A DNA stretch of 64,000 nucleotides from Gammaproteobacteria bacterium (GTDB lineage: Bacteria; Pseudomonadota; Gammaproteobacteria; Eutrophobiales; Eutrophobiaceae). Positions 28,101-58,862 of the stretch are shown here, in pieces. Made by a program: the position numbers and the translations under genes. The notes below the pieces were generated by a model. It was not told the DNA's origin. It searched no databases and saw only the letters and a list, made by a program, of their open reading frames with translations. The stretch spans positions 1,024,001 to 1,088,000 of the forward strand of contig OZ244905.1 in the NCBI GenBank assembly GCA_965221695.1. Reading direction: 5' to 3'. Every line of letters starts with the position of its first letter. Position 1 is the first letter of the stretch.

Positions 28101-31100
28101 TGGTCTCGGTGCCGAAGCTGGGCGTCGTGTCGACCCGCGGCGTCGCCGTCACTGTGGCGGAGGCGTCGCTGTTGCCGCGGGCATTTACAGCCCGAATCTC
28201 GAACGCGTATTCGGTGGCGTTGGTGAGGCCGGTGACCGTGTGTGTGGTGGTGCCGGCGCCGCTGTCGCTGATGTCCGCCCAGGTGGCGGTGGCGGGCACG
28301 GTGGAACCCGCGCCGTAGCGCACCTGGTACTTGGTGATGTTGCTGTCGTTCGGGTTGGTCCAAGCCAAGTCAACCTGGGTACTGCCAGGGGTCGCCGTCA
28401 GTCCGATTGGCGCAACCGGCACTGTGGCTGGGGTCGCGGTTTTGAAAATAACCTTTTGATTGCCGATAGCGTTCTCAATGTGGAAGTCATTGTCGTTCAG
28501 CGTGGTTAGCAGGGTACCCGAGAACGTCGCCTTGTCTCCTGTTGGGTCGTAGATGTTACCGGTGAGATTGGCCTTGTCTATGAATAGCAACTTATAGTAA
28601 CTATTAAGCCGGATGTTAAATTCGGTGCTGTAGTTATTCAGGAATTCGAGTGCTGAATAACCGGAGTAAGAGCTCAATCCAGTTGTCACGAAGGCCGGGA
28701 GCGAACGGTACTCGCGAAGCGGTGTGGGATCCTCGAACGGAACAGAAACTTGCCACTTCTCAAATTCATCATTTATTAGGATAAGTGTTCCTGCTCCCCC
28801 AATCCTCTGCCTTGTTGTATCCCCTCTATCACTGAAGCCCGACACGTCCAAGCTGCCCGAGGCCGCAACGGTCACGGTGCTGCCGTCATCCGAGAAAGTG
28901 AGGGTCAGTGTGCGCGCCGGGGTCGGCGCCATCGGCGTGGCCGCGGCGGTGGCCGCCTCGCCGTTGCCGGCGGTGTTGGTGGCGCGCACGGCAAACGTGT
29001 AGCCGGTGCCGTTGGTCAGGCTGGTGGCGGTGTAAGTGGTGGCAGTGCCGGCGAGGTCGGTCCAGGCGTCGGTGGCGTCGTTGAACGGCAGGTCGGCGGT
29101 GGCCTTCCAGCGCACCTGCACGGCGCCGATCACGCTGGCGTTGGTCGGCAGGGTCCAGTTGAGCGTGACCTGGGCGTTGCCGGCGGTGGCCGTCAGGTTC
29201 GTCGGCGTGTCCGGGACCGCCAGCTTCGGCTGTGCCGTCGTATCCACGGAGTCGCTGCTGCCAGCGGCGTTGGTGGCGCGGACCTCAAACTCGTAGCTCA
29301 CGCCGTTGTCGAGGCCGGTCACGGTGCGGGTGGTGGCGTCCTTGGCCAGCAGGGTCCATTGGCTCCAGGCCGTGTCCGTCTTCTTCTTGTGGCGCACGTC
29401 GATGCTGTCGACCGTGCCCTTGTCCGGCAGGTCCCAGGTCAGGGTCACTTGGGTGTCGCCGGCGCTGGCCTGCAGGTTGCTCGGGGACGACGGCTTCGCC
29501 AGCTCCGGCGTGCCCTCGACGCTGGCCGACGGACCCGTGCCCACGGTGTTCACTGCGCGCACCTCGAACAGGTAGTCGGTGCCGTTGGTCAGACCCGTCA
29601 CCCGCTCCCGCTCCGCGGTGCCCGCCAACGAGCGCCACTCGCTCCAGCCGGTGTCGGGGGCCGTCTTCACCTTGTAACGCAGCTCCACGCGGTCAATCTG
29701 GTTGGTGTTCGTCGGCAAGGTCCACAGCACCACCACCTCGGTGTCGCCGGATACTGTGCTCAGCTTGGTCGGCGCACCCGGCGCCGTGGTCGGGGTCGCT
29801 GATATGGCCGCGGACGCACCGGCGCCAGACGCGTTCTCCGCCCGTACCTCAAAGTTGTACAGATCGCCGTTGGTCAGGCCGGTCACCGTGTAGGTCGTGG
29901 CGTTCGCGGCCAGGTCCACCCAGGCCTGCCAGTCTTTCGCCGTGTCCGCCTTGTAGCGCACCTGCACCTTGGTCAGCGCGCCGGCGTTTGCCGGCAGGGT
30001 CCAGGTCAGGACAACCTGCGTGTCGCCGGGGGCCGCCGCCAGGCCGGTCGGCGCCGACGGCACCGCCACCGGCGTCGCATCCACCTCCGCCACCGCGCCG
30101 CGGCCGGCGCCGTTCAGCGCACGCACGATAAACGTGTACTCGGCGCCGTTGGTCAGGCCGGTGACTTCGTGGCTGGTCGCGTCCTTCGCCAGGTCAACCC
30201 AGGGCTGGAAGTTCGCCGCGCTCTTGACCTTGTACGCCACCTGCATCCTGTCAATCTCGCTGGTGTTGGTCGGCAGGTCCCAGGTCAGGCCGACCTTGCC
30301 GTCGCCCGGCGCCGCGGTCAGGTTGCCGGGGGCGTCGGGCACCGCCAGCTTCGGCGTCGCCGTCACCGCAGAGGCCGCGCCGGCGCCGTCGGCGTTCACC
30401 GCGCGAATCTCAAAGGCGTGCAGGGTGTCGTTGGCCAGGCCGGTCACCGTGTGACCGGTGGTGCCGGCGTTGCTGCCGGCGATGTCGGTCCAGCTCTCGG
30501 TGCCGGGCACGGACGCGCCTTCGGCGTAGCGGAACTGGTACCTGGTGATGCTGTTGTCCCGGGACTGGGTCCACGCCAGCGTCACCTTGGTGTCGCCGGC
30601 CGTCGCCGCCAGGTCAGCGGGCGCGGACGGTACCTTGCCCGGCCCCGCCTCGGGCGTCGCGTCCACCTTCGCCTCGGCGCCGCGGCCGGCGCCGTTCAGC
30701 GCACGCACGATGAAGTTGTACTCGGTGCCGTTGGTCAGGCCGGTGACGTCGTAACTGGTCGCATCCTTCGCCAGGTCAACCCAGGGCAGGTAGTTGGCCG
30801 CGCCCGACTCCCTGTAGGCGACCTGCATCTTGTCAATCTCGCTGGTGTTGGTCGGCAGGTCCCAGGTCAGGGCCACCGAGCCGTCGCCCGCAGCGGCGGT
30901 CAGGTTGCCGGGGGCGTCCGGGACCGCCAGCTTCGGCTGGGCGTCCACCGCCACCGAGTCGCTGCTGCCGGCGGTGTTGGTGGCGCGGACCTCAAACTCG
31001 TAGGTCACGCCGTTGTCAAGACCGGTCTCAGTGTGGGTCGTGGCGTCCGCGGCCAGGTCGGTCCAGGGCGCCCAGGTCGTCTCGCCCCGGGCCTGGTGGC

Positions 31101-34100
31101 GCACCTGCACCTTGTCCAGCACGCTGGCGTTCGTCGGCAGATCCCAACTCAGGCTCACCGAGCGGTCGCCCGCAGTGGCCGTCAGGTTGTCCGGGGCATC
31201 CGGAACCGCCACTTGGGGCGTCGCCTTGATCGCGTCCGAGGCGTAGCCCGGAAGGCTGCCGGCCACGGCGCGGATCTGGAAGGTGTACTCGGTGCCGTTG
31301 GTCAGGCCGGTCACCGTATGGGTGATGGTGGTGGCGCCGCTGCCGGGTATGTCATCCCACAGGTCAAAGCCCACGTTTTCAAAGTCGAATATCTGGTACT
31401 TGGTGATGCTATCGTCCCTGGGATCTTCCCAGATCAGGGTGACTTCCGTGTCGCCGGCTATGGCGGTAAAGTTTCTGGGCTTGGCAGGCCGCTCCGGCGG
31501 TTCCGTGATGGTGATATTGAACGTGAGGCTCGCCGTGTCGCCGTCGGCGTCGGTGGCGGTGTAGGTGTACTGCGTCGCATCCTGGACCGCGCTCGGCGTA
31601 CCGGTGAGGGTGCGGTTGGTGGCGTCGAAATTCAGGCCCGCGGGGGCGGCCGGGGTCAAGCTGTAGGTCAAGGTGCCGTTGCCGCCGGTGGCTTCGGGCA
31701 GGGTCAGCGTAGCGATGGCCGTGTTCCGGATGTAGTTCTGGTCGTCGATAGTCTCGGTGCCGAAGCTGGGCGTGGTGTCGACCCGCGGCGTCGCGGTGAC
31801 GGTGTCCGAGGCGTCGCTGTTGCCGCCGTTGTTCACCGCCCGGATCTGGAACGCGTATTGCTGGCCGTTGATGAGGTCCGTCACCTTGTGGCTGGTGGTG
31901 CCGGCGCCGCTGCCGGTGATGTCGGCCCAGGCGGTGCTGCCGGGCACGCTTGCGCCTTGCGCCTGGCGGAGCTGGTACTTGGTGATGCTGGAATCGTTCG
32001 GGTTGTTCCAGCTCAGGGTGACTTCGGTGTCGCCGGGCGCGGCGGCCAGGTTGGCGGGCGCGGCGGGTACCGGCGGCGGTGTTGCCGTGTAAACGATCTT
32101 CTGATTGCCAAACGCAAGCTCGATGTGGAAATCGTTGTCGCCCAAGCTATCGAGCACGGTGCCGGAGTACGTTACCGTCTTGCCCGTCGGGTTATAGATG
32201 TCCCCGTTGAGGCTGGCCTTGTCCACGATCATGTACTTGCGGTAGGTGTTGAACAGGATGGTGAAATCGTTGCTGTAGTTGGCCAGGTTTAATATTTCGT
32301 TGTAACCCGTGAAGGAACTCCTACCGGTCTTGGTGAAGTCCGGCAGATCCTCGTAGCGCCTCGATGGGGCGCCGTTGGCGAGCGACGCCGGATGAAAAGC
32401 CCAGAGTTCATCGGTATCGTCTATTTTGATGTAAATGACGTGTTCCGGCACGGTATCCCCGACATCTGTGAAGCCAGACATATCCAGGCTTCCGGAGGCG
32501 GCAATGGTGGTGGTGGCGCCATCGTCGGAGAAGGTGAAGGTCAGCGTGCGCGCCGGCGTCGAGGGCGCCATCGGTGTGGCCGCGGCAGTGGCCGCGGGGC
32601 CGTCGCCGGCGGTGTTGGTGGCGCGCACTGCGAAGGTGTAGCCGGTGCCGTTGGTCAGGCCGGTGGCGGTGTAAGTGGTGGCCGTGCCGTCGTTGAGGTT
32701 GGTCCAGGTGTCGGTACTGTCGTTGAACGGCAGGTCGGCCGTGGCCTTCCAGCGCACCTGCACGTCGCCAATCACGCTGGCATTGGTCGGCAGCGTCCAG
32801 TTGAGCGTGACCTGGGCGTTGCCGGCGGTGGCCGTCAGGTTCGTCGGCGCGTTCGGTACCGCCAGCTTCGGCTGTGCCGTCGTATCCACCGACGCACTGC
32901 TGCCCGCGGTGTTCGTCGCGCGTACCTGGAACTCATACACCACACCATTGTCCAGACCCGTGACCGTGTACGTGGTCGCATCCGCAGCCAGCGCCGTCCA
33001 GTCATCCGCCCAGTTGTCGGTCTTCTTCTTGTAACGCACATCAATACTGTCTATCACCGCACCCTTGTCCGGCAGGTCCCAGGTCAGGATCACTTGGGTG
33101 TCGCCGCCATCGGCCTGCAGGTTGCTCGGCGCAGACGGCTTCGCCAGCTCCGGCGTGCCCTCGACGCTGGCCGACGGACCCGTGCCCACGGTGTTCACCG
33201 CGCGCACCTCGAATACGTAGTCGGTGCCGTTGGTCAGGCCCGTCACCCGCTCCCGTTCCGCCGTGCCCGCCAACGAGCGCCATTCGCTCCAGCCGGTGTC
33301 AGGGGCGGTCTTCACCTTGTAACGCAGCTCGACGCGGTCAATCTGGTTGGTGTTCGTCGGCAAGGTCCACAGCACCACCACCTCGGTGTCGCCCGGCACC
33401 GTGCTCAGCTTGGTCGGCGCGCCCGGCGCCGTGGTCGGGGTCGCCGATATGGCCGCGGACGCACCGGCGCCAGACGCGTTCTCCGCCCGTACCTCGAAGT
33501 TATACAGCTCGCCGTTGGTCAGACCCGTCACCGTGTAGGTCGTGGCGTTCGCCGCCAGGTCCACCCAGGCCTGCCAGTCTTTCGCCGTGTCCGCCTTGTG
33601 GCGCACCTGCACCTTGGTCAGCGCGCCGGCGTTTGCCGGCAGCGTCCAGCTCAGGACGACCTGGGTGTCGCCGGGGGCCGCCGTTAAGCCGGTCGGCGCC
33701 AACGGTACCGCCACCGGCGTCGCATCCACCTCCGCCACCGCGCCGCGGCCCGCGCCGTTCAGCGCACGCACGATGAACGTGTACTCGGTGCCGTTGGTCA
33801 GGCCGGTGACGTCGTGGCTGGTCGCATCCTTCGCCAGGTCCACCCAGGGCTGGAAGTTCGTTGCGCTCTTGACCTTGTACGCCACCTGCATCCTGTCAAT
33901 CTCGCTGGTGTTGGTCGGCAGGTCCCAGGTCAGGCCGACCTTGCCGTCGCCCGGCGCCGCGGTCAGGTTGCCGGGGGCGTCGGGCACCGCCAGCTTCGGC
34001 TGGGCGTCCACCGCCACCGAGTCGCTGCTGCCCGCCGTGTTCGTGGCGCGGACCTCAAACTCGTAGGTCACGCCGTTGTCAAGGCCGGTCTCGGTGTGGG

Positions 34101-37100
34101 TCGTGGCGTCCTTGACCAGCAGGGTCCATTGGCTCCAGGCCGTGCCCGTCTTCTTCTTGTGGCGCACGTCGATGGTGTCCACCGTGCCCTTGTCCGGCAG
34201 GTCCCAGGTCAGGGTCACTTGGGTGTCGCCGGCGCTGGCCTGCAGGTTGCTCGGTGCCGACGGCTTCGCCAACTCCGGCGTGCCCTCGACGCTGGCCGAC
34301 GGACCCGTGCCGGCGGTGTTCACCGCACGCACCTCGAACACGTAGTCGGTGCCGTTGACAAGGTTCGTCACCCGGTAACGCTCGGCCGTGCCCGCCAGGG
34401 AGTTCCACTTGCTCCAGCCGGTGTCGGGGGCCGTCTTCACCTTGTAGCGCAGCTCGACGCTGTCAATCCGGCTGGTGTTCGTCGGCAGCGTCCACAGCAC
34501 CACCACCTCGGTGTCGCCCGGCACCGTGCTCAGATTGGTTGGCGCGCCCGGCGTCACCAGCGGCGCCGCCGGGGTGGCCGAGATCGACGCCGCCGCACCG
34601 GCGCCGGAGGCATTCTCCGCCCGTACCTCGAAGTTGTACAACTGCCCGTTGGTCAGGCCGGTCACGGTGTGAGTCGTGGCGTCCGCGGCCAGGTCAACCC
34701 AGGCCTGCCACTGCTTCGCCGTGTCCGCCTTGTGGCGCGCTTGCATCTTGGTCAGAACGCCCGAATCGGTCGGCAGGGTCCAGCTCAGGCCGACTTGCGT
34801 GTCGCCGGGGGCCGCCGCCAAGCCGGTCGGCGCCGACGGCGCCGCCAGCGGTGTCGCATCCACGCTCGCCACCTCGCCACGGCCCGCATCGTTGCGCGCG
34901 CGCACGATGAACGTGTACTCGGTGCCGTTGGTCAGGCCCGTGACCGTGTACGTGGTCGCATCCTCGTCTTTCAGGGTCACCCACGGCCGGTAGTTCGTCG
35001 CACTCTTTTCCTTGTACGCCACATCCACCCAGTCAATCTCGCTGGTGTTGGTCGGCAATACCCAGGTCAGGGTCACCTGCTGGTCGCCAGGCGCCGCGGT
35101 CAGGTCCGTCGGCTCACCCGGTATCGCCAGCACCGGGCGCGCCGTTATCCGCGCCTCGCCCTCGCCCGCGGTGTTCACCGCACGCACCGCAAACTGGTAG
35201 GTCTGACCGTTCTTCAGGTTCGTTACCGTGTGCTCCGTCGCATCAGCAGCCAGGTCCACCCACGCCGACCAGGTCGTCTCAGTGAGCCGCCGGTAGCGCA
35301 CCTGTACCTTGTCAAGCTCGCTGGCGTTGGTCGGCAATACCCAATTCAAGGTGACCCGGGTGTCGCCCGGGGTCGCCTTCAGGTCGGTCGGGGCGTCCGG
35401 CACCGCCAACTCAGGAATGGCCTTGCGCTCATCCGAGGGCGGGCCGGCGGCCGTGCCCACCACTGCCCGTACCTGGAACGTGTACTCGGTGCCGTTGGTC
35501 AGGTTCTCCACCGTGTGGCTGGTGGTCGTCGCGCCGCTGTTGGGAATGTCCACCCACGAGTCATACCCCACGCCCCTGTGGTCCGTCACCTGGTACTTGG
35601 TAATGCTGCGGTCGCGCGGGTCGTTCCAGGTCAACGTGACCCGGGTGTCACCCGCCCTGGCATTGAAGTTACTGGGCTTGGCCGGAGGCTCGTCAACATC
35701 TGTAATGGTGATGGCCACTTCCACCATGGCGCTGTTGCCGTCCTCGTCCGTGGCCGTGAGCGCATACTCGTAGATGTTGTTGGCGTCATCGTCTGTCGGG
35801 GACTCGTGGTCCTTGGCCGCCAGCGTCACGGTGGCGCCGGTGTTGGTCTCGTTCGACAGCGTGAACCCGCCCTGTCTGCGGGTGTCAGCGCCCCGGAGCG
35901 CCCAGGTGATGTCGCCCACCGGGGCGCCGGTTAAGGTCGCATTGCCGGTATAGGTCGCATTCTCCGGCTGGTCGGCATCAGCCACACCGCCGATGGTTAA
36001 GGTCGCGGCGATGCGAATGTCAAACGTCAGCTCTGCCGTGTCGCCGTTGGCGTCGGTCGCGGTGTAGGTGTACTCAGTGGCCGCCTGGGTTCCCGTCGGG
36101 GCGCCGGTTAAGGTGCGGGCGGTCGCATCAAACGTCAGACCCGCCGGCGGGGTCGGCGTTAAGGTATAGGTCAGTGGCGTATCGCCGCCGCTCGCCTCGG
36201 GCAGGTTCAGCGTCGGTATCGCAGTGTTCTGTGTGTAGTCCTGGTCGGCTATCGTCTTGTCGCCAAAACTCGGCAGCGCATTCGCAGTGACCGCTACGGT
36301 AGCCGTGAGACCGGCGTAGTTGCCGCCGGCGGCGGTTAAGGTGACCGTCGCAGCGCCGTCAGTCGGGTTGGCTGCCATGTTCACCGTGACCTTCTGCGCC
36401 GTGCTGTAGTTCGTGGCGGTGAATGTCAGCGGCGTCGGGCTGACCGTCACGTCCGTGTCATCACTGGTGAGTGTGACCGTGACCGGGGCGGTCGGGGCCG
36501 CCGCCAAGGCCACCGTGAACGTCTCGCTTGCGCCCGGTTGCACGTCAAGGGTCGTGGTTGAGACCACCAGGGCCGGCGGCGCCCTCGGTATGGCCGTGGT
36601 TGTCGCCGCCTCGCCATCACCGGCAGTGTTGGTGGCGCGCACCGCAAACGTGTAGTTCGTGCCGTTGGTCAGACCCGTCACCGTGGTCGTCGTTGCCGTG
36701 GCGTCGTTGAGGTTGGTCCAGGTGTCGGTACTGTCGTTGAACGGCAGGTCGGCAGTGGGCTTGTAGCGCATCTCCACCTTGGCAATCACACTGGCATTCG
36801 TCGGCAGCGTCCAGTTGAGCCTGGCCTGCTTGTCACCGGCCGTCGCGCTCAGGTCCGTCGGTGCGCCCGGTATCGCCAGCGTGGGTGTGGCCGTTACCGC
36901 CGCCGAGGCAGGACCCTCGCCGGTCGCATTCACCGCCCGTAGCCGGAACGCATAGGCCGTGCCGTTGGTCAGTCCTGTGACCGTGTGGGTCGTGGTCGTA
37001 TCATCGCTGTTGAGAATGTCCTCCCAGGTCGCGCTGTTCGAGCCGGCATCCAACGACTCGTAGCTCACCTGGTACTTGGTGATGCTGATATCTGACGGAT

Positions 37101-40100
37101 TGGTCCAATTCAGCGTGACCTCGGTGTCGCCCGCGGTCGCGGTCAGGCCGGTTGGCGCAACGGGTATCGGGGGCGCGGGTGTTGCCGTCACCGTTGCCGA
37201 TGCGGCGCTGTTGCCGCGGGCGTTTACGGCGCGGATTTCGAAGGCGTATTGGGTGCCATTGGCGAGGCCGCTGACGGTATGGGTGGTGGTGCCGGCGCCG
37301 CTGTTGCCGATGTCTTCCCAGGTCGCGGTGGCGGGCACGGTGGAACCCGCGCCGTAGCGCACCTGGTACCTGGTGATGTTGCTGTCGTTCGGGTTGGTCC
37401 AAGCCAGGTCAACCTGGGCATTGCCCGCGGTCGCCGCCAGGCCGGTTGGCGCGGCGGGGACTGTGGCTGGGGATGCTGTCTTGAAGACGATCTTCTGATT
37501 GCCGAACGCGTGTTCGATGTCGAAGTCGTTGTCGCCCAAGGTGCTTTGCAGGGTGCCCGTGAACGTGACCTGGTCTCCAGTCGGGTCGTAGATTGTCCCT
37601 GTGAGATTGTCCTGGTCTACCAGCATCCGGTTATAGAAGGTGGTGAATCGGAGGTAGAATTCGGCACTATAGTTAGACAAGTTTTCGGCTGAAGAGGGAC
37701 CTGAGAAAGGCTCATTAACCGTGGTCGTCAAGGCAGAGAGTTGATACGAACTCACCGGGCTGTTGATGCCGGACGAGTCCGCCCCGATGACCCAGATGTC
37801 AGTGTCATCGAAAGAAATTGCGTTTGAGAATCCGATCGTTGTATTAGGCCGGGAACCGGATGCTGAGAAATCCAAACTGCCAGCGGCGTCGATGGTCACG
37901 GTGCTGCCGTCGTCGGAGAAGGTCAAGGTCAGCGTGCGCGCCTGGGTCGGGGGCATCGGCGTGGCCGAGGCGGTGGCCGCGGGGCCGTCGCCGGCGGTGT
38001 TGGTGGCGCGTACTTCGAAGGTATAGCCAGTGCCGTTGGTCAGGCCGGTGGCGGTGTAGGCGGTGGCCGTGCCGACGAGGTCGGTCCAGGCATCGCTGGC
38101 GGTGAACGGCAGGTTCGCCGTCGCCTTCCAGCGCACTTGCACGGCGCCGATCAAGCTGGCGTTGGTCGGCAGGGTCCAGCTCAATTCGACCTGGGTGTCG
38201 CCGGCGGTGGCTGTCAGGTTCGTCGGTGCGTCCGGGACCGCCAGCTTCGGCTGGGCGCCCACGGCCACCGAGTCGCTGCTGCCGGCGGCGTTGGTGGCGC
38301 GTACCTCAAACTCGTAGCTCACGCCGTTGTCAAGACCGGTCTCGGTGTGGGTCGTGGCGTCCTTGGCCAGCAGGGTCCATTGGCTCCAGCTCGTGTCCGT
38401 CTTCTTCTTGTGGCGCACGTCGATGGTGTCGACCGCACCCTTGTCCGGCAGGTCCCAGGTCAGGGTTACTTGGGTGTCGCCGGCGCTGGCCTGCAAGTTG
38501 CTCGGCGCAGACGGCTTCGCCAGCTCCGGGGTACCCTCGACGCTGGCCGACGGACCCGTGCCCACGGTGTTCACTGCGCGCACCTCAAACACGTAGTCGG
38601 TGCCGTTGACCAGACCCGTCACCCGCTCCCGCTCGGCCGTGCCCGCCAATGAGCGCCATTCGCTCCAGCCGGTGTCAGGGGCCGTCTTCACCTTGTAGCG
38701 CAGCTCGACGCGGTCAATCTGGTTGGTGTTCGTCGGCAAGGTCCACAGTACCACCACCTCGGTATCGCCCGGCACCGTGCTCAGCTTGGTCGGGGCGCCC
38801 GGCGCCGTGGTCGGGGTCGCCGACACGGCCGCAGACGCACCGGCGCCAGACGCGTTCTCCGCCCGTACCTCAAAGTTGTACAGCTCGCCGTTGGTCAGAC
38901 CCGTCACCGTGTAGGTCGTGGCGTTCGCCGCCAGGTCCACCCAGGCCTGCCAGTCTTTCGCCGTGTCCGCCTTGTGGCGCACCTGCACCTTGGTCAGCGC
39001 GCCGGCGTTTGCCGGCAGCGTCCAGCTCAGGACGACCTGGGTGTCGCCGGGGGCCGCCGTTAAGCCGGTCGGCGCCAACGGTACCGCCACCGGCGTCGCA
39101 TCCACCTCCGCCACCGCGCCGCGGCCGGCGCCGTTCAGCGCACGCACGATGAACGTGTACTCGGTGCCGTTGGTCAGGCCGGTCACTTCGTGGCTGGTCG
39201 CATCCTTGGCCAGGTCCACCCAGGGCTGGAAGTTCGCCGCACTCTTCACCTTGTACGCCACCTGCATCCTGTCAATCTCGCTGGTGTTGGTCGGCAGGTC
39301 CCAGGTCAGGCCGACCTTGCCGTCGCCCGCGGTGGCCGTCAGGTTGGTCGGGGCGTCCGGGACCGCCAGCTTCGGCTGGGCGTCCACGGCCACCGAGTCG
39401 CTGCTGCCGGCGGTGTTGGTGGCGCGGACCTCAAACTCGTAGGTCACGCCGTTGTCAAGACCGGTCTCAGTGTGGGTCGTGGCGTCCTTGGCCAGCAGGG
39501 TCCATTGGCTCCAGGCCGTGTCCGTCTTCTTCTTGTGGCGCACGTCGATGGTGTCGACCGTGCCCTTGTCCGGCAGGTCCCAGGTCAGGGTCACTTGGGT
39601 GTCGCCGGCAGCGGCTTGCAAGTTGCTCGGCGCCGACGGCTTCGCCAGCTCCGGCGTGCCCTCGACGCTGGCCGACGGACCCGTGCCCACGGTGTTCACC
39701 GCGCGCACCTCGAACAGGTAGTCGGTGCCGTTCACCAGACCCGTCACCCGGGAACGCTCCGCCGTGCCGGCCAGGGAGCTCCATGCGCTCCAGCCGGTGT
39801 CGGGAGCCGTCTTCACCTTGTAGCGCAGCTCGACGCTGTCAATCCGGCTGGTGTTGGTGGGCAGGGTCCACAGCACCACCACCTCGGTGTCGCCGGGCAC
39901 CGTGCTCAAGTTGGTCGGCGCGCCCGGCGTAACCAGTGGCGGCGCCCGCGGCGTCGCCGCGCCGGTGGCGGGGTCGCCGTTGCCGGCGCTGTTGGTGGCG
40001 CGCACCTGGAAGGTGTAGCCGGTGCCATTGGTCAGGCCGGTGACCTTGTGGCTGGTGGCGTCGGCGGACGGCAGGTCGGTCCACTTGTCGCGGGCGTCGT

Positions 40101-43100
40101 CGAACGGCAGGTCCGCCGTGGCCTTCCAGCGCACCTGCACGGTGTCGATCTCGCTGGTGTTGGTGGGCAGCTTCCAGCCCAAGGCCACTTCGGTGTTGCC
40201 CCCCGTGGCGCTGAACTCGGTCGGCTTGCCGGGAACCGCCAGCTCCGGCGTTGCGGCCGTCCGCGCCGCCGGGCCGGCGCCGGACGCGCTCTCCGCGCGC
40301 ACTTCAAACAGGTAGTCCTGGCCGTTCTTCAGGTTGGTCACGGTGTGCGTGGTGGCGTCCGCCGCCAGGTCGGTCCAGGGTTCCCAAGTGGTTTCGCCCC
40401 GGGCCTGGTGGCGCACCTGCACCTTGTCCAGCACGCTGGCGTTCGTCGGCAGGTCCCAAGTCAGGCTCACGGAGCGGTCGCCCGCGGTGGCCGTCAGGTT
40501 CTCCGGGGCGTCCGGAACCGCCACTTGCGGCGTCGCCTTGACCGCGTCGGAGGCGTCGCCCAGCAGGCTGTCGGCCACGGCGCGGATCTGGAAGGTGTAC
40601 TCGGTGCCGTTGGTCAGGCCGGTCACCGTGTGGGTGACGGTGTCGGCGCCGCTGCCGGGAATGTCATCCCACAGGTTGATCCCCACGGTTTCAGAGTTGA
40701 AAATCTGGTACTTGGTGATGCTGTCGTCACCGGGGTTGGCCCAGATCAGGGTGACTTCCGCGTCGCCGGCTATGGCGACCAGGCTCCTCGGCTTGGCGGG
40801 CGGCTCCAGTTCGTCGTAGATCGCGGTGACCGTGGTCGCGGCGGCGTTGTCGTTGCCGGCGGCGTCCTGGGCCACGGCCGCCGCCACGGCGACGCTGAAC
40901 TCGCCCTCGGCCTTCGGCGTGATCTTCGCCGTGTAGACCGGCGCTGCCGGATCCGGTTGGGCGAAGGCCGAAGCGTCGGCGTTGGTCAATGTGATGTCGC
41001 CGGCCTCGAAGCCGGTGACGGACTCGCTGAAGGTGAAGGTGGCATCCACCGCTGCGTTGACCGTTCCGGAAACGCCCGTGATGGCCACCGTCGGCGCCGT
41101 GTTGTCCAGCTCGTACGTAATCTGATTGCCGCGGGGCGGGGTCCGGTCACGGAGCGTATTGCCAACGCAGTCCGTGACCTCCGCATGATTCAGCGTCAAG
41201 GTGGCCGTGCCGTTGTAGCCAGCCAATGCGCCGCCGGAAATGTTTACGACGTAGGGAGTGAGATCTCCGCAGGTATTCGGATCATCGGCCCCCGGGGTCA
41301 CGGTCAGCGTCGGCTCCTGCGTGATCGCCGGCACGAAGGTAACCGTATAGGCAGCCGCACTACCGGCCCCCGAATTGCGCATGCTTTCGTTGTATTGAAC
41401 CGACCACTGCACCGAATCCCGGTTGGTCGGCGACTTCGCGTCGGTGTTCCCGGTTTCGCTGTCGTAACGGAAAATTGAAGTTACGTGTGGAGGGGTCCTG
41501 TCCAGCAGGTAGGTGTCGTCGTTGGTCCCCGTCGGCGTGGTGTCGGTCAGCGCGTTGCCGGCGGTATCCTCGATGTCCTGGCCCTGCACGAACTCCAGGT
41601 TCACCGTGCCGGCCAGCACCACCAAATTGCCACCGGCCACGTTCACGTCCCAGGTGGTGCCGTCCGTGCCGACTGCCGTCGCCGTCTCCGTCCCGTCCGT
41701 ACCCGCAACGTGGAAGTCATCGTCGGACACATTCACCACCGCCTCGCTGAATGTCACCCGCCAGGTCAAGGACACCGCGTTGGTGGGCGAAGTTGGCGGA
41801 TCATGTCGCACAATGCTCGCCACCCGCGGCGCTTGGGTGTCCGCAGTGACGGTGATGTTGAACGTGAGGCTGGCCGTGTCGCCGTCGGCGTCAGTGGCGG
41901 TGTAAGTGTAGGCTGTCGCGCTCTGGGCCGTGGTCGGAGCGCCCGTCAGGGTGCGGGCGGTGTCGCTGAACGTCAGACCCGCCGGCGGGGTCGGTGTTAG
42001 GGTATACGTCAGTGTGCCGTCACCGCCGCTGGCCTGCGGCAGGTTCAGCGTGGTAATCGCCGAGTTCTGCATGTAGGTCTGGTCGGCAATGGTCTGGGTG
42101 CCGAAGGTCGGCAGCGCATTCGATGTGGCCGAGACCGTGGCCGCCTCGCCGTTGCCGGCGGTGTTGGTGGCGCGCACCGCAAACGTGTAGCCGGTGCCGT
42201 TGGTCAGGCCCGTCGCCGTGTAGGTGGTGGCCGTGCCGTCGTTGAGGTCGGTCCAGGTGTCGGTGGTGTCGTTGAACGGCAGGTCGGCGGTGGCCTTCCA
42301 GCGCACCTGCACGTCGCCGATTACGCTGGCATTGGTCGGCAGCGTCCAGTTGAGCGTGACCTGGGCGTTGCCGGCGGTGGCCGTCAGGTTGGTCGGCGCG
42401 TTCGGTACCGCCAGCTTCGGCTGGGCGGCCACGGCCACCGAGTCGCTGCTGCCGGCGGCGTTAGTGGCGCGTACCTCAAACTCGTAGCTCACGCCGTTGT
42501 CGAGACCGGTCTCAGTGTGGGTGGTGGCGTCCTTTGCCAGCAGGGTCCATTGGCTCCAGGCCGTGTCCGTCTTCTTCTTGTGGCGCACGTCGATGGTGTC
42601 GACCGTGCCCTTGTCCGGCAGGTCCCAGGTCAGGGTCACTTGGGTGTCGCCGCCAGCGGCTTGCAGGTTGCTCGGGGACGACGGCTTCGCCAGCTCCGGC
42701 GTGCCCTCGACGCTGGCCGACGGACCCGTGCCCACGGCGTTCACCGCGCGGACCTCGAACAGGTAGTCGGTGCCGTTCACCAGGCCCGTCACCCGCTCCC
42801 GTTCCGCCGTGCCCGCCAACGAGCGCCATTCGCTCCAGCCGGTGTCAGGGGCGGTCTTCACCTTGTAACGCAGCTCGACGCGGTCAATCTGGTTGGTGTT
42901 CGTCGGCAAGGTCCACAGCACCACCACCTCGGTGTCGCCCGGCACCGTGCTCAGCTTGGTCGGCGCGCCCGGCGCCGTGGTCGGGGTCGCCGATATGGCC
43001 GCGGACGCACCGGCGCCAGACGCGTTCTCCGCCCGTACCTCGAAGTTATACAACTCGCCGTTGGTCAGACCCGTCACGGTGTAGGTCGTGGCGTTCGCCG

Positions 43101-46100
43101 CCAGGTCCACCCAGGCCTGCCAGTCCTTCGCCGTGTCCGCCTTGTGGCGCACCTGTACCTTGGTCAGCGCGCCGGCGTTTGCCGGCAGGGTCCAGCTCAG
43201 GACGACTTGCGTGTCGCCGGGGGCCGCCGTTAAGCCGGTCGGCGCCGACGGAACCGCCACCGGCGTCGCATCCACCTCCGCCACCGCGCCGCGGCCCGCG
43301 CCGTTCAGCGCACGCACGATGAACGTGTACTCGGTGCCGTTGGTCAGGCCGGTGACGTCGTAACTGGTCGCATCCTTGGCCAGGTCAACCCAGGGCTGGA
43401 AGTTCGCAGCGCTCTTGACCTTGTACGCCACCTGCATCTTGTCTATCTCGCTGGTGTTGGTCGGCAGGTCCCAGGTCAGGCTCACCGCGCCGTCGCCTGC
43501 GGCGGCGGTCAGGTTGCCGGGGGCGTTCGGTACCGCCAGCTTCGGCTGGGCGTCCACCGCCACCGAGTCGCTGCTGCCCGCCGTGTTCGTGGCACGTACC
43601 TCAAACTCGTAGGTCACGCCGTTATCGAGACCGGTCTCAGTGTGGGTGGTGGCGTCCTTGGCCAGCAGGGTCCATTGGCTCCAGGCCGTGTCCGTCTTCT
43701 TCTTGTGGCGCACGTCGATGGTGTCGACCGTGCCCTTGTCCGGCAGGTCCCAGGTCAGGGTCACTTGGGTGTCGCCGGCAGCGGCCTGCAGGTTACTCGG
43801 GGCCGACGGCTTCACCAGCTCCGGCGTGCCCTCGACGCTGGCCGACGGACCCGTGCCCGCGGTGTTCACCGCGCGCACCTCGAACAGGTAGTCGGTGCCG
43901 TTGACCAGACCCGTCACCCGGTAACGTTCTGCCGTGCCGGCCAGGGAGCTCCATGCGCTCCAGCCGGTGTCGGGGGCCGTCTTCACCTTGTAGCGCAGCT
44001 CGACACTGTCAATCCGGCTGGTGTTCGTCGGCAAGGTCCACAGCACCACCACCTCGGTGTCGCCCGGCACCGTGCTCAGATTGGTCGGCGCGCCCGGCGT
44101 CACCAGCGGCGGCGCCCGCGGCGTCGCCGCGCCGGTGGCCGGCTCGCCGTTGCCGGCCTTGTTGGTGGCGCGCACTTCGAAGGTGTAACCGGTGCCGTTG
44201 GTCAGGCCGGTGGCGGTGTAGGCGGTGGCGTCAGAGGACGGCAGGTCGGTCCATTTGTCGCGGGCGTCGTCGAACGGCAGGTCCGCCGTCGCCTTCCAGC
44301 GCACCTGCACGGTGTCGATCTCGCTGGTGTTGGTGGGCAGCTTCCAGCCCAAGGCCACTTCGGTGTTGCCCCCCGTGGCGCTGAACTCGGTCGGCTTGCC
44401 GGGAACCGCCAACTCCGGCGTTCCGGCCGTCCGCGCCGCCGGGCCGGCGCCGGACCCGCTCTCCGCGCGCACTTCAAACAGGTAGTCCTGGCCGTTCTTC
44501 AGGTTGGTCACGGTGTGCGTGGTCGCGTCCGCGGCCAGGTCGGTCCAGGGTTCCCAAGTGGTTTCGCCCCGGGCCTGGTGGCGCACCTGCACCTTGTCCA
44601 GCACGCTGGCGTTGGTGGGCAGGTCCCAACTCAGGCTCACCGAGCGGTCGCCCGCAGTGGCCGTCAGGTTGTCCGGGGCGTCCGGAACCGCCACTTGGGG
44701 CGTCGCCTTGACCGCGATCGAAGGATCGCCCGGGACGTTGCCGGCCACGGCGCGGATCTGGAAGGTGTACTCCGTGCCGTTGACCAGGTTCTCCACGGTG
44801 TGGCGGGTGGTCGTGGCGTCACTGCCCTCGATGGGCTCCCAGGGATCGGAGCCGTATTGGTAGAGAACCTCGTACCCGGTGATGGTGGGGTCGTTCGGGT
44901 CGATCCAGGCCAGGGTGACCCTGGTGTCGCCGGCTATGGCGATCAGGTTCCTGGGGCTGGCGGGCGGCTCGACCGCCTTGGCGATGGTGATATTGAACGT
45001 CAGGCTCGCCGTGTCGCCGTCGGCGTCGGTGACGGTGTAGGTGTAGGCTGTTGCGCTCTGGACCGTGGTCGGGGTGCCCGTCAGCGTGCGGTTGGCAGCG
45101 TCAAAGGCCAGGCCCGCCGGTGCGGCCGGGGTCAGGCTGTAAGTCAGCGTGCCATTGCCGCCGGTGGCTTCGGGCAGGGTCAGCGTGGCGATGGCCGTGT
45201 TCCGGGTGTAGGTCTGGTCGTCGATAGTCTCGGTGCCGAAGCTGGGCGTCGTGTCGACCCGCGGCGTCGCGGTGGCGGTGTCGGAGGCGTCGCTGTTGCC
45301 GCCGTTGTTCACCGCCCGGATCTGGAAGGCGTATTGCTGGCCGTTGGTGAGGCCGGTCACCGTGTGGCTGGTGGTGTTGGCGCCGCTACCGGTGATGTCG
45401 GCCCAGGCTGTGCTGTCAGGAACGGTTGCGCCCTGGGCCTGGCGGAACTGGTACTTGGTGATGCTGGAATCGTTCGGGTTGGCCCAGTTCAAGGTGGCTT
45501 CGGTGTCACCGGCGGTGGCAGACAGGTTGGTCGGCGCGGCGGGCACCGGCGGCGGTGTTGCCGTGAAAATAATCTTCTGATTGCCAAACGTATGTTCGAT
45601 GTGGAAGTCATTGTCCCCAAGAGTCCCGGACAGGGTGCCGGTGAACGTTACATTCTTGCCCGTCAGGTCGTAAATGTTTCCGCTGAGATTGGTTTTATCT
45701 ATGTATAGCCTCGGAAGATAAGTGCTGAACCGGATGGCAAAATCGTGGCTGTAGTTGCTCAGGGTTTCGACTTTCGCATTACCCGTGTAGGTGCTCGTGC
45801 CGGTGGTCACAAAGTTCGGGAGCGAGTTGTACCAGCTAAGTGGTGTGGTATCCGACTGAGGCATAATTTGCCATATCTCCGTATCGTCTATAAGCAGACC
45901 TGAGAATCCCTCACCTTGCGGCGTCGTATCCTGGAGATAATTGAAGCCCGAGACATCCAAACTGCCCGAAGCGGCAATGGTGACGGTAGTTCCATCATCG
46001 GAGAACGTGAACGTCAGCGTGCGTGCCGGGGTTGGCGCGGTGGGCGTCGCCGTCACCGTGGCCGAGGCGTCGCTGTTGCCGGTCGCATTGACTGCGCGAA

Positions 46101-49100
46101 TCTCGAATGCGTATTGCGTGCCGTTGGTCAGGCCGGTCACGTCGTGGCTGATGGTGGTCTCGCCGCTGCCGGTGATGTCCCCCCAGGTGGCGGTGGCCGG
46201 CACGGTTGACCCGGCGCCGTAGCGGACCTGGTACTTGGTGATGGTGTCGTCGTTCGGGTCGGTCCAATTGAGCGTTACCTGCGTGTCGCCCGCAGTCGCG
46301 GCCAGGCCGGTGGGGGCGTCAGGCACAGGCGGCGTTGCCGTGAATATGATCTTCTGATTGCCGATGGCGTGCTCGATGTGGAAGTCGTCATCGCCCAGAG
46401 TGGTGAGCAGGGTGCCTGTGAAGGTGATGTCTTGATCCAGACTGTAAATGCCTCCGCTAATGTGGCTAGCGCTTAGTTCCAGGTCCGCAAGTAGAGGATC
46501 TGTTCCATGGCCGAAGTGAAATCCCGAGTTATAACTGCCTAAATTCTCCACTTCCCTATTTCCCGTATAGGAACTCTCACCGGTAGTGGAGATATCGGGA
46601 AGCTGGTTGTAATAATTTACCGATAACCTGCTGGAAGGAAAGAGCACCCACTGAGACAGATCACCCATCTTGATCACGGGCCGGGCGTTCTGGTTAGTAG
46701 TGCTACTAAGATTGAAACCCGAGACATCCAGACTACCCGAAGCGGCAATGGTCACGGTGCTACCGTCATCGGAGAACGTGAACGTCAGCGTGCGTGCCGG
46801 GGTTGGCGCGGTGGGTGTGGCCGTCACCGTGGCCGAGGCATCGCTGTTGCCGGTGGTGTTCACCGCGCGGATTTCAAACGCATATTGCGTGCCGTTCGTC
46901 AGGCCGGTCACGTCGTGGCTGATGGTGGTCGCGCCGCTGCCGGTAATGTCCTCCCAGGTGGCGGTGGCCGGCACGGTGGACCCGGCGCCGTAGCGCACCT
47001 GATACTTGGTAATGGTGTCGTCGTTCGGGTCGGTCCAGTTCAGAGTCGCCTGCGTATCACCGGCTGTCGCAGTCAGACCCGTCGGCGCAGCCGGTACCGT
47101 GGCGGTGGTGGTCGTGAATATGATCTTCTGATTGCCAATGGCGTGCTCAATGTGGAAGTCGTTGTCGCCCACGGTGTTGAGCACGGTGCCAGTGAACGTC
47201 ACTTCGTCACCTGTCGGGTCGTAGATGTCCCCGGTGAGATTGGCTTTGTCTACGAACAGTAACTTTCTGTAAGTGTTGAACCGGAGACTGAATTCGTAGT
47301 TGTAGTTGCTCAGGTTGATAATTTCTTGGTTACCCGAGTACGAATTCAAACCAGTAGTTACGATATTTGGGAGCGAGTTATAACGGCTTATCGGTGTGGT
47401 ATTGTCAGATGGCGTTGCAAAAATCTGCCATTTCTCAAATTCCTGATTAAATAGGACATATCCCACAGACGTCACTAGCGTCGGCACCGTATCTCCCGCA
47501 GGACTGAAACCCGAAACATCCAAACTACCCGAGGCGGCAATAGTCACAGTGCTGCCATCATCGGAGAACGTGAACGTCAGCGTACGTGCCGGGGTCGGCG
47601 CGGTGGGCATCGCCGTCACCGTGGCCGAGGCATCGCTGTTGCCGGTCGCGTTCACCGCGCGGATTTCAAACGCATATTGCGTGCCGTTGGTCAGGCCCGT
47701 TACGGTGTGGGTCTTGGTCTCGTCGTCGCTGCCGGTAATGTCCTCCCAGCTAGCAGTGGCGGGTACGGTAGACCCGGCGCCATAGCGCACCTGGTACTTG
47801 GTGATGCTGGTGTTTTGCGGGTCGGTCCAATTGAGCGTCACCTGCGTGTCGCCTGCTGCCGCAGACAGGCCCGTGGGCGCGGCCGGGGCCGGCAGCGTTG
47901 GCGTGGCCGTGGCCGTCGCCGCAGTACTGTTGCCGGCGGTGTTGGTGGCGCGTACGGCAAACGTGTAACCCGTGCCGTTGGTCAGGCCCATGGCCGTGTA
48001 GGTCGTGGCTGTTGCGGCCAGGTCAGTCCACGTATCGGTGTTGTCATTAAACGGCAGGTCGGCGGTGGCCTTGTAGCGGACCTGGATGTTGGTAATCGTG
48101 CTGGCGTTGGTCGGGTTGGTCCAGGTCAGGGTGACCTGGGCGTTGCCCGCCGTTGCCGTCAGGCCAGTCGGGGCGTCGGGTATCGCCAGCGCAGGGGTGG
48201 CCGTGACCGTGGCCGACGCATCACTGTTGCCGGTCACATTGACTGCGCGAATCTCGAATGCGTATTGGGTGCCGTTGGTCAGGCCCGTTACTATGTGGCT
48301 GGTGGTCGTGGCACCACTGCCGGTAATGTCGTCCCAGGTGGCGGTGGCGGGCACGGTGGACCCGGCGCCGTAGCGTACCTGGTACTTGGTGATGGTGTCG
48401 TCGTTCGGGTCGGTCCAGTTCAGAGTCACCTGCGTATCACCGGCTGTCGCAGTCAGACCCGTCGGCGCTGCCGGTACTGTAGCGGTGGTGGTCGTGAATA
48501 TGATCTTCTGCGTGCCAATCGCGTGCTCAATGTGGAAGTCATTGTCCCCAAGAGTTCCGGACAGTGTGCCGGTGAACGTCACATTCTTGCCCGTCAGGTC
48601 ATAAATGTTTCCGGTGAGATTGGCCTTGTCTATGTACAACCACTTAAAATTGGTGTCGAAATAGATAGCAAAATCGTGGCTGTAGTTGCTCAGGGTTTCG
48701 ATTTGCGCATTACCCGTGTAGGTGCTCGTGCCTGTGGTCACAAAGTTCGGGAGCGAGTCGTACCAGCTAAGTGGTGTGGTATCCAACTGAGGCATAATTT
48801 GCCATATCTCCGTATCGTCTATAAGCAGACCTCTGTATCCCTCAGCTTGCGGCGTGCTATCCAGGACATAATTGAAGCCCGAGACATCCAAACTGCCCGA
48901 AGCGGCAATGGTGACGGTAGTTCCATCATCGGAGAACGTGAACGTCAGCGTGCGTGCAGGGGCCGGCGCTCTCGGTGTGGCCGTGGCCGTCGCCCGAGTA
49001 CTGCTGCCGGCGGTGTTGGTGGCACGTACTTCGAAGGTGTAGCCGGTACCGTTGGTCAGGCTCGTGGCCGTGTAGGTCGTGGCCGTGCCGTCGTTGAGGT

Positions 49101-52100
49101 TGGTCCAGGTGTCGGTGGTGTCGTTGAAAGGCAGGTCAGCGGTGGCCTTCCAGCGGACCTGTATATCGCCAATCACGCTGGTATTGGTCGGCAGCGTCCA
49201 GGTCAGGGTGACCTGGGCGTTGCCCGCTGTTGCCGTCAGGCCGGTCGGGGCGTCGGGTATCGCCAGCGCGGGGGTGGCCGTCACCGTGGCTGACGCATCG
49301 CTGTTGCCGGTCACATTGACTGCGCGAATCTCAAATGCGTATTGGGTGCCGTTGGTCAGGTTGTCAACGGTGTGGGTCGTGGTCGTGGCGCCGCTGCCGG
49401 TGATGTCCTCCCAGGTGGCGGTGGCGGGCACGGTTGACCCGGCGCCGTAGCGCACCTGGTACTTGGTAATGGTGTCGTCGTTCGGGTCGGTCCAGTTCAG
49501 AGTCGCCTGCGTATCACCGGCTGTCGCAGTCAGACCCGTCGGCGCCGCCGGTACTGTGGCGGTGGTGGTCGTGAAGATGATCTTCTGCGTGCCAATCGCG
49601 TGCTCAATGTGGAAGTCATTGTCCCCAAGAGTTCCGGACAGTGTGCCGGTGAACGTCACATTCTTGCCCGTCAGGTCATAAATGTTTCCGGTGAGATTGG
49701 CCTGGTCCAATTCCAAGGTCTGATCCAAACTGTCGTTTCGAAAATAGATGCTGAAGTCGTGGCTGTAGTTGCTCAGGGTTGCGATTTCCCCATTACCCGT
49801 ATAGGTATTCAACCCGGTGGTTGTGATATTCGTGAACGAGTCATATTTGCTAATTGGTGTGGCGTCCAGGAGCTGCGGATGAATCTGCCATCTCTTCAGA
49901 TCGCCCAAAAATAGACCTGGGTACCCATCACTATTATTCAACGTCGTATTAAATGGATTACCGAAGTCGGAAACATCCAAACTGCCCGAAGCAGCAATGG
50001 TGATGGTAGTTCCATCATCAGAGAACGTGAACGTCAGCGTGCGTGCAGGGGCCGGCGCCCTCGGTGTGGCCGTGGCGGTGGCCGCCGTACTGTTGCCGGC
50101 GGTGTTGGTGGCGCGCACCGCAAACGTGTAATCGGTGCCGTTGGTCAGGCTTATCGCCGTGTAGGTGGTGGCGGTGGCAGCCAGGTTGGTCCAGGTGTCG
50201 GTATTGACAAACGGCAGGTCAGCCGTGGCCTTGTAGCGGACTTGCAGGTTGTCAAGCGTGCTGGCGTTGGTCGGGTTGGTCCAGTTTAAGATAACCTGGG
50301 TGTCACCGGCGGTGGCTGTCAGGTTCGTCGGTGCGTCGGGGGCAGACAAGGTCGGGGTGGCCGTGACCGTGTCCGAGTCCGGGCCGTTGGCGGCGCCGAC
50401 CACCGCGCGTATCTGGAACGCATACACCTGGCCGTTGGTCAGGTTGTCAACGGTGTGGGTCGTGGTCGTCGCGGTGGCGCCGGCGATGTCGGTCCAGGGG
50501 GTGGTGGCCGGTATGGTGTTGCCCTGGGCATAGCGCACCTGGTACCTGGTGATGGTACTGTCGTTCGGGTTGGTCCAGGTCAGCGTGACCTCGGTGTCGC
50601 CGGCAGCGGCAGTCAGATTAGTGGGCTTGGCCGGGGCCTCGTCCACATCGGTGACCGTCACCGTGTAGACGGCTGAGGTCACCGTGTTGGTGTTCGCATC
50701 CGTCGCCGTTAACGTGTACTCGTAAGTGTTGCCGGTGTCACTGTCGGTCGGGGTCTCAAAGTCCCGCGCCGCCAGGCTCACCCGCGCCCCGGTCTGACTC
50801 TGGTTCGCCGCCGGCAGCGTAAACTCGGCCGCATCCGCCCCGCCCAGTGTCCACGTGACCGCGCCCAGGGCGCCGGTCAAGGATGCATCCACCGTGTAAG
50901 CCTGGTTCTCGCTCACGCTGGCATCGGCCAGGCCCGTCAGCGTCAGTGTGGCGGGCTCATCGATATTGGTAATGGTGATGGCCACGTTCACCGTGTCGCT
51001 GTTGCCGTCATCGTCCGTCGCCGTTAACGTGTACACATAAATGTTATTGGCGTCGTTGTCCGTCGGGACCTCGAAGTCCTTGGCGCCCAGGGTTACGGTG
51101 GCGCCGGTGTTGCTCTGGTTCGACAGGGTAAAGCCGCTCGCATTGGCGTCGTCGCCGGTCAACGCCCAGGTGATGTTGCCCACCGGCGTGCCGGTCAAGG
51201 TCGCATTGCCGGTGTAGGCCGTATTCTCGGCCAAGTTGGCATCGGCCACACCGCCGAGGGTTAGCGTGGGCGTAATACGGATGTCGAACGTCAGCGTGGC
51301 CGTATCCCCGTCCGCATCGGTGGCGGTGTAGGTGTATTCGGTGGCCGCCTGCGGCGCGGTCGGCGTGCCGGTTAAGGTACGGGCGGTGGCGTCAAACGTC
51401 AGACCCGCCGGCGGGGTCGGCGTTAACGTGTACGCCAGTGTGCCGTCACCGCCGGTCGCTTGCGGCAGGTTCAGCGTGGTAATCGCCGTACCCTGCGGGT
51501 AGGTCTGGTCGGCAATGGTCTGCGTGCCGAAGCCCGGCAGCGCATTCGCGGTGACCGCGACCGTGGCCGTGAGGCCGGCGTAGTTGCCGCCGGTAGCGGC
51601 TAAGGTGAGGGTGGCGTTGCCGTTAGGTGACGGGTTGGCCGCCATGGTCACCGTGACCGTCTGTGCGGTGTTGTAGTTGGTGGCGCTGAACGTCAGCGAC
51701 GTCGGGTTGACCGTCACATTGGTGTTGTTGCTGGCCACGGTGATGGCGACCGCGGCGGTCGGGGCCGCGACCAGGGTCACATCAAAGGTGTTGCTGCCGC
51801 CCTCATCGACCACCAGGGTGGCCGGTGCGACGGTAATGGCCGGGTCCGGTCTGGGGGTGGCGGTGACCGTGTCCGAGTCCGGGCCGTTGACGGCGCCGAC
51901 CACCGCGCGTATCTGGAACGCATACACCTGGCCGTTGGTCAGGTTGTCAACGGTGTGGGTCGTGGTCGTCGCGGTGGCGCCGGCGATGTCGGTCCAGGGG
52001 GTGGTGGCCGGTATGGTGTTGCCCTGGGCATAGCGCACCTGGTACCTGGTGATGGTACTGTCGTTCGGGTTGGTCCAGGTCAGCGTGACCTCGGTGTCGC

Positions 52101-58838: not shown

Positions 58839-58862
58839 AGTGGTCAATGTAATCAGGATGGG

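Follow-up and report, generated by a model that had tools for sequence, protein, structure and literature searches.

Introduction

A constant framework combined with a variable part is common to antibodies and to the products of diversity-generating retroelements. In gene-conversion antigenic variation of the pilE/pilS and vlsE type a variable middle lies between conserved ends and is exchanged by homologous recombination. Type Va autotransporters (PF03797) typically carry a beta-helical passenger. Here we analyzed a stretch of 64,000 nucleotides (nt), called the window, from a gammaproteobacterium of the family Eutrophobiaceae (assembly GCA_965221695.1, contig OZ244905.1, positions 1,024,001 to 1,088,000). 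It contains a giant open reading frame (ORF), gene A, with eight copies of one domain whose ends are conserved and whose middle part, the core, varies. A preliminary description had read these copies as a possible antibody-like repertoire of ligand-binding heads.

Fibrillar adhesins, as described by Monzon, Lafita and Bateman in 2021 (PMC8286594), resemble the predicted gene A protein in their long immunoglobulin (Ig)-like or FN3 stalk and their anchor. In most of them the adhesive domains are found at the end remote from the anchor; Gram-negative phyla are more varied and also have them inside the chain. Unlike the proteins described there, gene A has a putative head without a Pfam family, eight types of it per chain and cassettes of it that occur across phyla. 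With type Va autotransporters it would share a probable leader, the long passenger and a predicted C-terminal barrel ending in an aromatic motif, whereas its passenger is a chain of FN3/Ig beads, 13,900 residues long, and its predicted barrel lies below Pfam detection. The variable middle, the conserved ends and the gene conversion between copies are reminiscent of pilE/pilS and vlsE; unlike in these systems, there are no silent cassettes, all 13 copies of the genome lie in frame in four giant genes, the types are stable and several would be displayed at once. Diversity-generating retroelements and antibodies differ from the locus by reverse transcriptase, template repeat, adenine bias, cysteines and significant positive selection, none of which was found in the searches and tests given below. 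By analogy, the gene A product would act as a fibrillar adhesin held by an anchor of the autotransporter type, and the exchange of its domains resembles gene-conversion variation minus the silent donors. The explanation that we prefer, with a probability of about 0.6, is a fibrillar adhesin whose probable binding heads are exchangeable as cassettes.

The Eight Domain Copies of Gene A

Eight in-frame copies of 155–161 amino acids were recovered with profile E-values of 1e-62 to 1e-78 (Table 1), and the profile search detected no ninth copy in the gene A ORF. The eight copies of a domain of about 155 residues in the preliminary description were thus located correctly to within a few bases. Mean pairwise amino acid identity over all 28 pairs is 90% (79–100) for the first 24 residues, 39% (21–81) for the core and 71% (56–100) for the last 44 residues. 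Consequently, the ends can be called nearly constant at the N-terminus but not at the C-terminus. The cores differ strongly on average, as proposed, but copies 2 and 5 are closely similar in this part, and more anchor residues are kept than had been listed. No cysteine occurs in any of the eight copies.

The cores are indeed AT-richer and aromatic-rich. Phenylalanine, tryptophan and tyrosine make up 10–17% of their residues versus 7% in the whole gene A protein, and the guanine plus cytosine (G+C) content is 0.48 versus 0.68 in the FN3 units. The FN3 units account for most of this contrast: G+C occupies 92% of their four-fold sites, compared with 61% in the cores and 72% across the long ORFs of the genome (n = 1,069; 5th–95th percentile 54–84%). 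The FN3 value (positions 20000-54000) exceeds the 95th percentile of 84%, for which GC-biased conversion or a high-GC donor may be considered. Homogenization of the FN3 neighbours to near identity, which had also been claimed, is confined to nearest neighbours (median 94%). Overall, the 70 FN3 units, counted by motif, form 21 clusters at 80% and have a mean pairwise identity of 50%, compared with 56% for the eight whole domains.

Besides the domain copies gene A contains a stalk, made up of about 70 FN3 units together with units of the He_PIG, cadherin-like and Big_9 types, and a predicted C-terminal barrel. The families fn3, He_PIG, Big_9 and Big_2 were above the Pfam cut-off in the two gene A stretches scanned. 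Read by eye, the leader has basic, hydrophobic and LLA|Q parts, and the same leader type precedes the domain in homologues. The end of the neighbouring gene B, closely similar to that of gene A, passes PF03797 with 29 bits (cut-off 26). A PEP-CTERM-type sorting tail is absent from the gene A C-terminus, where the barrel-like region is found instead.

Family, Fold, and Homologues of the Domain

The preliminary description could not assign the domain to a family, and our searches led to the same result. No Pfam family was above cut-off for any of the 8 copies or the 33 family members, no NCBIfam family reached its cut-off for the domain, the best sequence match in the PDB had an E-value of 0.16, and Foldseek with the domain model returned nothing at E 0.001. 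Likewise, no known adhesive domain family was recognized in these sequences or in the two scanned stretches of gene A. The AlphaFold2 model of copy 3, calculated from a 37-row alignment, has a predicted local distance difference test score (pLDDT) of 91 and is all-beta with one late helix; low confidence is limited to the vicinity of residues 35–45. Comparison of this model with 48,161 chains by VIA-align gave a best Z of 2.7 (root mean square deviation 3.9, 66 aligned residues). The domain might still be a sandwich of the Ig type, but the cysteine pair conserved in Ig V-domains is missing in 8 of 8 copies. In the ESM Atlas the best scores were 0.76 for the domain and 0.82 for the PEP-CTERM-type family introduced below, which we regard as leads only. 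From the model, the domain may possibly have a new fold, an absent match being no proof of novelty. Word matching found no published description of the domain, most subscription papers and supplements lying outside its reach.

A profile search of 1.84 billion representatives yielded 41 proteins. When 10 of these were left out as fragments or partial matches, the first domain copy was located not more than 140 residues from the protein start in 27 of the remaining 31, mostly directly after the leader. The PF03797 cut-off was passed by three of eight tip-domain proteins scanned (P0022, P0024, and P0029). Because of this N-terminal position and the PF03797 matches in homologues, the domain seems as a rule to form the sole tip of an autotransporter-like fibre. 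Word-based protein searches gave just 6 and 5 short relatives, none of 277 pattern matches in JGI metagenomes was confirmed, and 400 genomes of the phylum contained one weak match (G286, E 9.4e-4).

The first strands had been said to resemble weakly those of PEP-CTERM proteins. This resemblance was substantiated and found to extend over 118 colinear columns. With a short motif the pattern scan gave at least 120 stretches, 80 of them taken as loci; 71 loci had the motif in frame, 47 the full domain, and 41 were left after near-duplicate removal. All four relatives scanned carried PEP-, VPDSG- or IPTL-CTERM tails. Alignment of the domain with this family by hhalign gave a probability of 90.7% (P 1.3e-6). 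After cutting of the selected motif the probability was 92%, and for the core alone it was 2.7% (P 0.017, still colinear). Therefore, the N-terminal strands supply much of the score. Ten hhalign controls against stalk units all stayed under 0.5%. The model of the PEP-CTERM-type family (pLDDT 96) shows the same order of elements as the domain. For this family, too, there was no solved-structure match (VIA-align best Z 3.5), no Pfam or NCBIfam family and no PDB match.

Judged from these alignments, the domain is probably a remote homologue of a common unnamed PEP-CTERM-type passenger domain. Both have the same strand order, one late helix, and conserved ends around a variable middle. The PEP-CTERM-type passenger proteins, however, are small, consist of a single domain with a sorting tail and share about 20% identity with the domain, which here is found on autotransporter fibres. 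Identities of start, core and end are 54/35/59% among the PEP-CTERM-type relatives and 45/19/38% among distant members of the domain's own family. Thus, conserved ends and a variable middle are a trait of the fold. The literature ties the PEP-CTERM sorting system to exopolysaccharide producers (PMC1569441), and ZepA, a characterized PEP-CTERM protein, is described as an Ig-like sandwich with a second domain (PMC10957091). The small secreted domain with PEP-, VPDSG- or IPTL-CTERM tails (loci L084-L163) is very common, gives a confident model and merits a family definition of its own.

Stability of the Cores and Selection

Among 60 relatives the domain was found only in the sister genome G008. 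Its gene A orthologue contains 6 of the 8 copies with cores 96–100% identical, copies 4 and 8 being missing, and three flanking stretches are 98.4–99.1% identical, about the level of the cores. Four public sequencing runs were compared over positions 45500-47650 through contigs, which drop rare variants. Contigs of runs X1 and X2 match without any difference, with lengths of 450 and 521 nt across copy 4, 357 and 207 nt across copy 3 and 372 nt across copy 5; run X3 has 1 difference in 405 nt. These three runs stem from three studies, one of which may be the source of the assembly. Joints in the runs were left aside, since at 85% likeness in metagenomes most of them derive from repeats and from foreign organisms. 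No RNA data set was listed among those containing the region, which carries no information on expression. The term hypervariable, used in the preliminary description, is therefore appropriate between copies but not between genomes.

Counting over 46 close pairs gave ratios of replacement to silent changes per site (pN/pS) of 0.52 for the core and of 0.20 and 0.22 for the ends. Codon models of our own construction, which ignore recombination, gave a corresponding ratio (omega) of 0.41 for the core and 0.15 for the ends. A class above omega 1 was not significant in any of the four core runs (M2a versus M1a, p 0.14–0.97). The set of own and sister genome alone came closest to significance (p 0.14), with a core omega of 0.82 and 18% of the sites at 2.6. 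When copies 2 and 5 are compared, each of the first eight codons that differ replaces the residue; over the whole core, 22 differences are replacements and 8 are silent (pN/pS 0.83, p 0.65). Changes in the cores (C/T 161, A/G 132, A/T 74, A/C 70, C/G 67, G/T 51) revealed no adenine specificity.

The genome contains 13 strong copies, identified by nhmmer and profile search, which all lie in frame in four ORFs of 3,431–13,912 codons. Silent copies elsewhere in the genome, for which a search had been suggested, did not turn up; nhmmer detected no silent or non-coding copy besides these 13. PF00078, the reverse transcriptase family, had 0 matches in the genome (G000, 96.85% complete), the control being positive in 3 of 14 genomes. 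A diversity-generating retroelement target was consequently ruled out by the missing PF00078 match, the missing non-coding template repeat and the missing adenine bias. Silent-cassette antigenic variation was dismissed as well, since there are neither donors nor fast turnover under positive selection, though gene conversion is present.

In general, an antibody-like or antigenic-variation system, that is, dedicated diversification under positive selection, is already largely refuted and must be regarded as very improbable. The omega values of the own and sister set, the run of eight replacement codons in copies 2 and 5, and two cores of a paralogue C with 81% and 68% identity from one sister genome to the other would fit such a system. 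They are outweighed by the non-significant site tests, by the stability of the cores across genomes and runs, and by the lack of reverse transcriptase, silent copy, adenine bias and invariant crossover sequence. Identical cores across strains together with a ratio well below 1, which the preliminary description itself had regarded as fatal to its antibody-like interpretation, are largely what we observed. The cores are in accord with relaxed constraint and not with active hypervariation.

Exchange of Core Types

Copy 3 and the single domain copy of gene B are 98–100% identical over the first 450 nt, 44–62% upstream and 72–80% directly after. The same pattern was observed in G008. Across the two genomes, 16 sites sort according to genome and 0 according to locus. 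Since the sites cluster by genome and the tract is limited to the domain, gene conversion has occurred between genes A and B with the domain as its tract. Furthermore, copies 1 and 2 are identical in their last 44 residues with cores at 55%, and a PHI-type test for recombination gave p=0.002.

A scan of one genome per species found 55 loci, of which five duplicated DNA already included and were removed; the remaining 50 loci belong to 19 genomes. These belong to several orders of Gammaproteobacteria, Alphaproteobacteria, Acidobacteriota, Nitrospirales, Longimicrobiales and Thermodesulfobacteriota. Together with the own and sister copies, and minus one partial copy, a set of 90 copies was obtained, which falls into 55 core types at 90%. 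Fourteen types occur in more than one genome, nine beyond the sister pair and five across phyla, a count in which the phylum placement of Nitrospirales is our assumption. The core type of copy 7 is among the types found in several genomes (Table 1). By contrast, a match was missing in 21 of 22 congeners.

Among 33 non-sister pairs (≥90%), which are edges of a spanning tree, 17 have a shared tract that ends at most 12 nt upstream of the domain. FN3 control pairs had a junction within 30 nt in 6 of 35 cases (Fisher p=0.004 versus the domain pairs). Downstream, the shared DNA usually extends over at least 250 nt and includes the FN3 unit that follows. In 34 type representatives both ends show variation at silent sites throughout; therefore, no fixed crossover sequence exists. 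This variation also ruled out a shufflon or site-specific switch. No recombinase was found among the neighbouring ORFs scanned, no genome-wide search having been made. The simplest mechanism is homologous recombination filtered by the need for a whole fold. Exchange through the conserved flanks had been suggested before and is now supported by the conversion between copy 3 and gene B and by the junctions at the domain start. At one locus (L072:5499-6413) two near-identical domain copies directly follow each other head to tail, without an intervening stalk unit.

Sharing of types could also be simulated by misassembly or misbinning of a metagenome rich in similar repeats. All named domain records do bear neighbouring accession numbers, and sharing of the FN3 linkers in the runs is very deep. 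Such an artefact is nevertheless extremely improbable, because the shared copies are 92–99% identical at the nucleotide level, stand in different gene contexts and lie on single-contig chromosomes. The conversion pattern is moreover present separately in two genomes with different variants, and exact pieces occur in the runs of three studies, one possibly the source.

Proposed Role of the Domain

In the explanation that we favour, gene A would encode an outer-membrane-anchored fibrillar adhesin with an autotransporter-like barrel and a long FN3/Ig stalk. The domain (160 residues, beta fold), normally present once at the tip, would have been copied into the stalk in this lineage, giving several types per fibre. 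Its first 24 and last 44 residues would constitute a folding framework under purifying selection, while the middle would tolerate change and probably forms a binding face. The core types would have arisen by ordinary divergence under weak constraint. Their transfer would involve entire cassettes, as a rule the domain together with the FN3 unit that follows it, and would proceed by homologous recombination and gene conversion inside the gene (copy gain or loss), between paralogous genes, and between unrelated bacteria sharing a habitat; how the DNA crosses between phyla is something we infer.

The types would be displayed on the surface and would each bind a different ligand. Per-site entropy was 1.67 at outward-classed strand positions of the core, compared with 1.09 at those core positions classed as inward and 0.41 at outward-classed positions of the framework; these values refer to seven of the eight copies, with classes taken from hydrophobicity in distant members and not from coordinates. 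The variable residues may form one face. A head-like role, as suggested in the preliminary description, gains some support from the tip position in homologues and from this variability at outward-looking positions.

A passive module would explain part of these data equally. The domain would then be a stalk spacer or kink whose middle drifts and which is moved by the shuffling of FN3-type repeats. About half of the core sites are compatible with omega 1 and no site significantly exceeds it, the FN3 units are just as diverse between their subtypes, and distant relatives share the conservation pattern. We consider this reading unlikely, since homologues mostly have one copy, located at the tip, since the related domain makes up the entire passenger of PEP-CTERM-type proteins, and since the cores are aromatic-rich. 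In addition, same-type cores of different genomes are 95–99% identical at the nucleotide level versus 86–93% in the surrounding tract of 1.6–3.2 kb.

Several points speak against the exchangeable-head explanation. The gene A barrel has no Pfam hit at E 0.1. The pN/pS of two core loops is 0.94, near neutral, which plain drift explains equally well, and the two divergent cores of paralogue C are not in line with stable types. The 33 junction pairs are not independent events, a signal peptide upstream of one partner also yields a break at the domain start, and junctions at the domain edge may reflect selection for intact folds instead of a recombination hot spot. The heads are putative binders, for which the searches gave no characterized relative and no solved fold.

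The set of types is wider than one polypeptide and common to several genes and phyla. An animal-associated marine community is the probable habitat; several names in the lineages are those of bacteria which we take to be sponge symbionts. Concerning the partners of the heads, these might face other microbes and not a host, serving kin or neighbour recognition, matrix binding or as phage decoys, and a common type would join species in an aggregate. The near-identical types found in different phyla fit this reading. Remote relatives bear PEP-CTERM, VPDSG-CTERM or IPTL-CTERM tails, and the PEP-CTERM system has the link to exopolysaccharide mentioned above. Phage escape, in contrast, predicts fast turnover, yet the cores are stable, and microbe-facing heads seem improbable to us. 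As to the habitat, a published study found sponge microbiomes to be enriched in FN3 and cadherin domains (PMC9531527).

A more far-reaching version of the exchangeable-head explanation is tentative and rather doubtful. Unrelated bacteria of one host community would share a library of recognition heads on an undescribed fold, each type with its own ligand. Domain-plus-FN3 cassettes would carry the types from phylum to phylum, and a chosen set would be displayed on a giant fibre. The same fold on PEP-CTERM-type proteins of free-living bacteria would then represent a large overlooked family of surface binders.

Further Features of the Window

The coordinates of all features are compiled in Table 1. 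Among the additional domains of gene A, the two-cysteine domain near the tip has a close copy in gene B and is a candidate second head. The motif of the domain of about 140 residues was not found in the G008 orthologue. A 740-nt query over the palindromic repeat behind gene A gave 166 BLAST pieces genome-wide, including some beside paralogue C. A small coiled-coil ORF precedes each of the two AAA_14 + DUF4143 genes, and these two small ORFs share DNA stretches that are 85–94% identical. The terminal run of He_PIG-like repeats in gene B contrasts with the mixed stalk of gene A.

Table 1: Features of the window. G008, sister genome; L030, L050 and L065, loci of the genome scan; X1 and X2, public runs.
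Feature	Position	Strand	Remarks
PurL	70-4218	plus	1,382 amino acids, ~80-90 longer than models; two-stretch match, possible insertion
Palindromic repeat, REP-like (resembling repetitive extragenic palindromes)	12938-13128		2 x 66 nt, 125 nt apart; immediately past gene A stop
Gene A	13129..54867	minus	13,912-codon ORF; predicted surface protein; start codon uncertain
C-terminal outer-membrane barrel, autotransporter-like (predicted)	13129..14244	minus	without own Pfam hit; 89% identical to gene B end
Unnamed domain of ~140 amino acids, two near-identical copies	23671-24108 and ~18840-19257	minus	first copy without Pfam hit
Ig-like units, some with cysteine pair	41101-41850 and ~21800-22190	minus	first stretch without Pfam hit
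Copy 8, 161 amino acids	28435..28917	minus	absent from G008 orthologue; nearest core 55% (among 90 copies)
Copy 7, 158 amino acids	32080..32553	minus	core type with 9 copies in 7 genomes, including L050 (Acidobacteriota, 97%)
Copy 6, 156 amino acids	37474..37941	minus	core 99% in G008, 92% in L065 (Acidobacteriota)
Copy 5, 157 amino acids	45556..46026	minus	core 96% in G008, 99% in L030
Copy 4, 155 amino acids	46333..46797	minus	absent from G008 orthologue along with one FN3 unit; unchanged in X1, X2
Copy 3, 161 amino acids	47107..47589	minus	modelled copy; core identical to single copy of gene B
Copy 2, 157 amino acids	48487..48957	minus	core 97% in G008, 81% to copy 5
Copy 1, 161 amino acids	49564..50046	minus	core 100% identical in G008
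Unnamed two-cysteine domain near gene A tip	53902-54300	minus	after first FN3-like unit; no Pfam hit
Probable long signal peptide of gene A	54670..54867	minus	ending LLA|Q; read by eye
Two AAA_14 + DUF4143 genes between genes A and B	55243-56451, 57609-58880	minus
Small coiled-coil ORFs	57079-57474, 58974-59384		one ahead of each AAA_14 + DUF4143 gene
Gene B 3' end	59416..64000	minus	7,764 codons, extends past window; paralogue with one domain copy outside window
Tandem repeats at gene B end	62660-64000	minus	near-exact, 93 amino acids, He_PIG-like; 279-nt period at 99%

Significance

Constant ends and a variable middle alone do not imply an antibody-like system. The domain offers an access to the question of how diverse symbionts recognize a common host or one another. 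It is small and confidently modelled, is available in 55 natural types, and follows the community and not the family tree. The common PEP-CTERM-type relatives are an easier route to solving the fold, and the types can be expressed and screened one by one.

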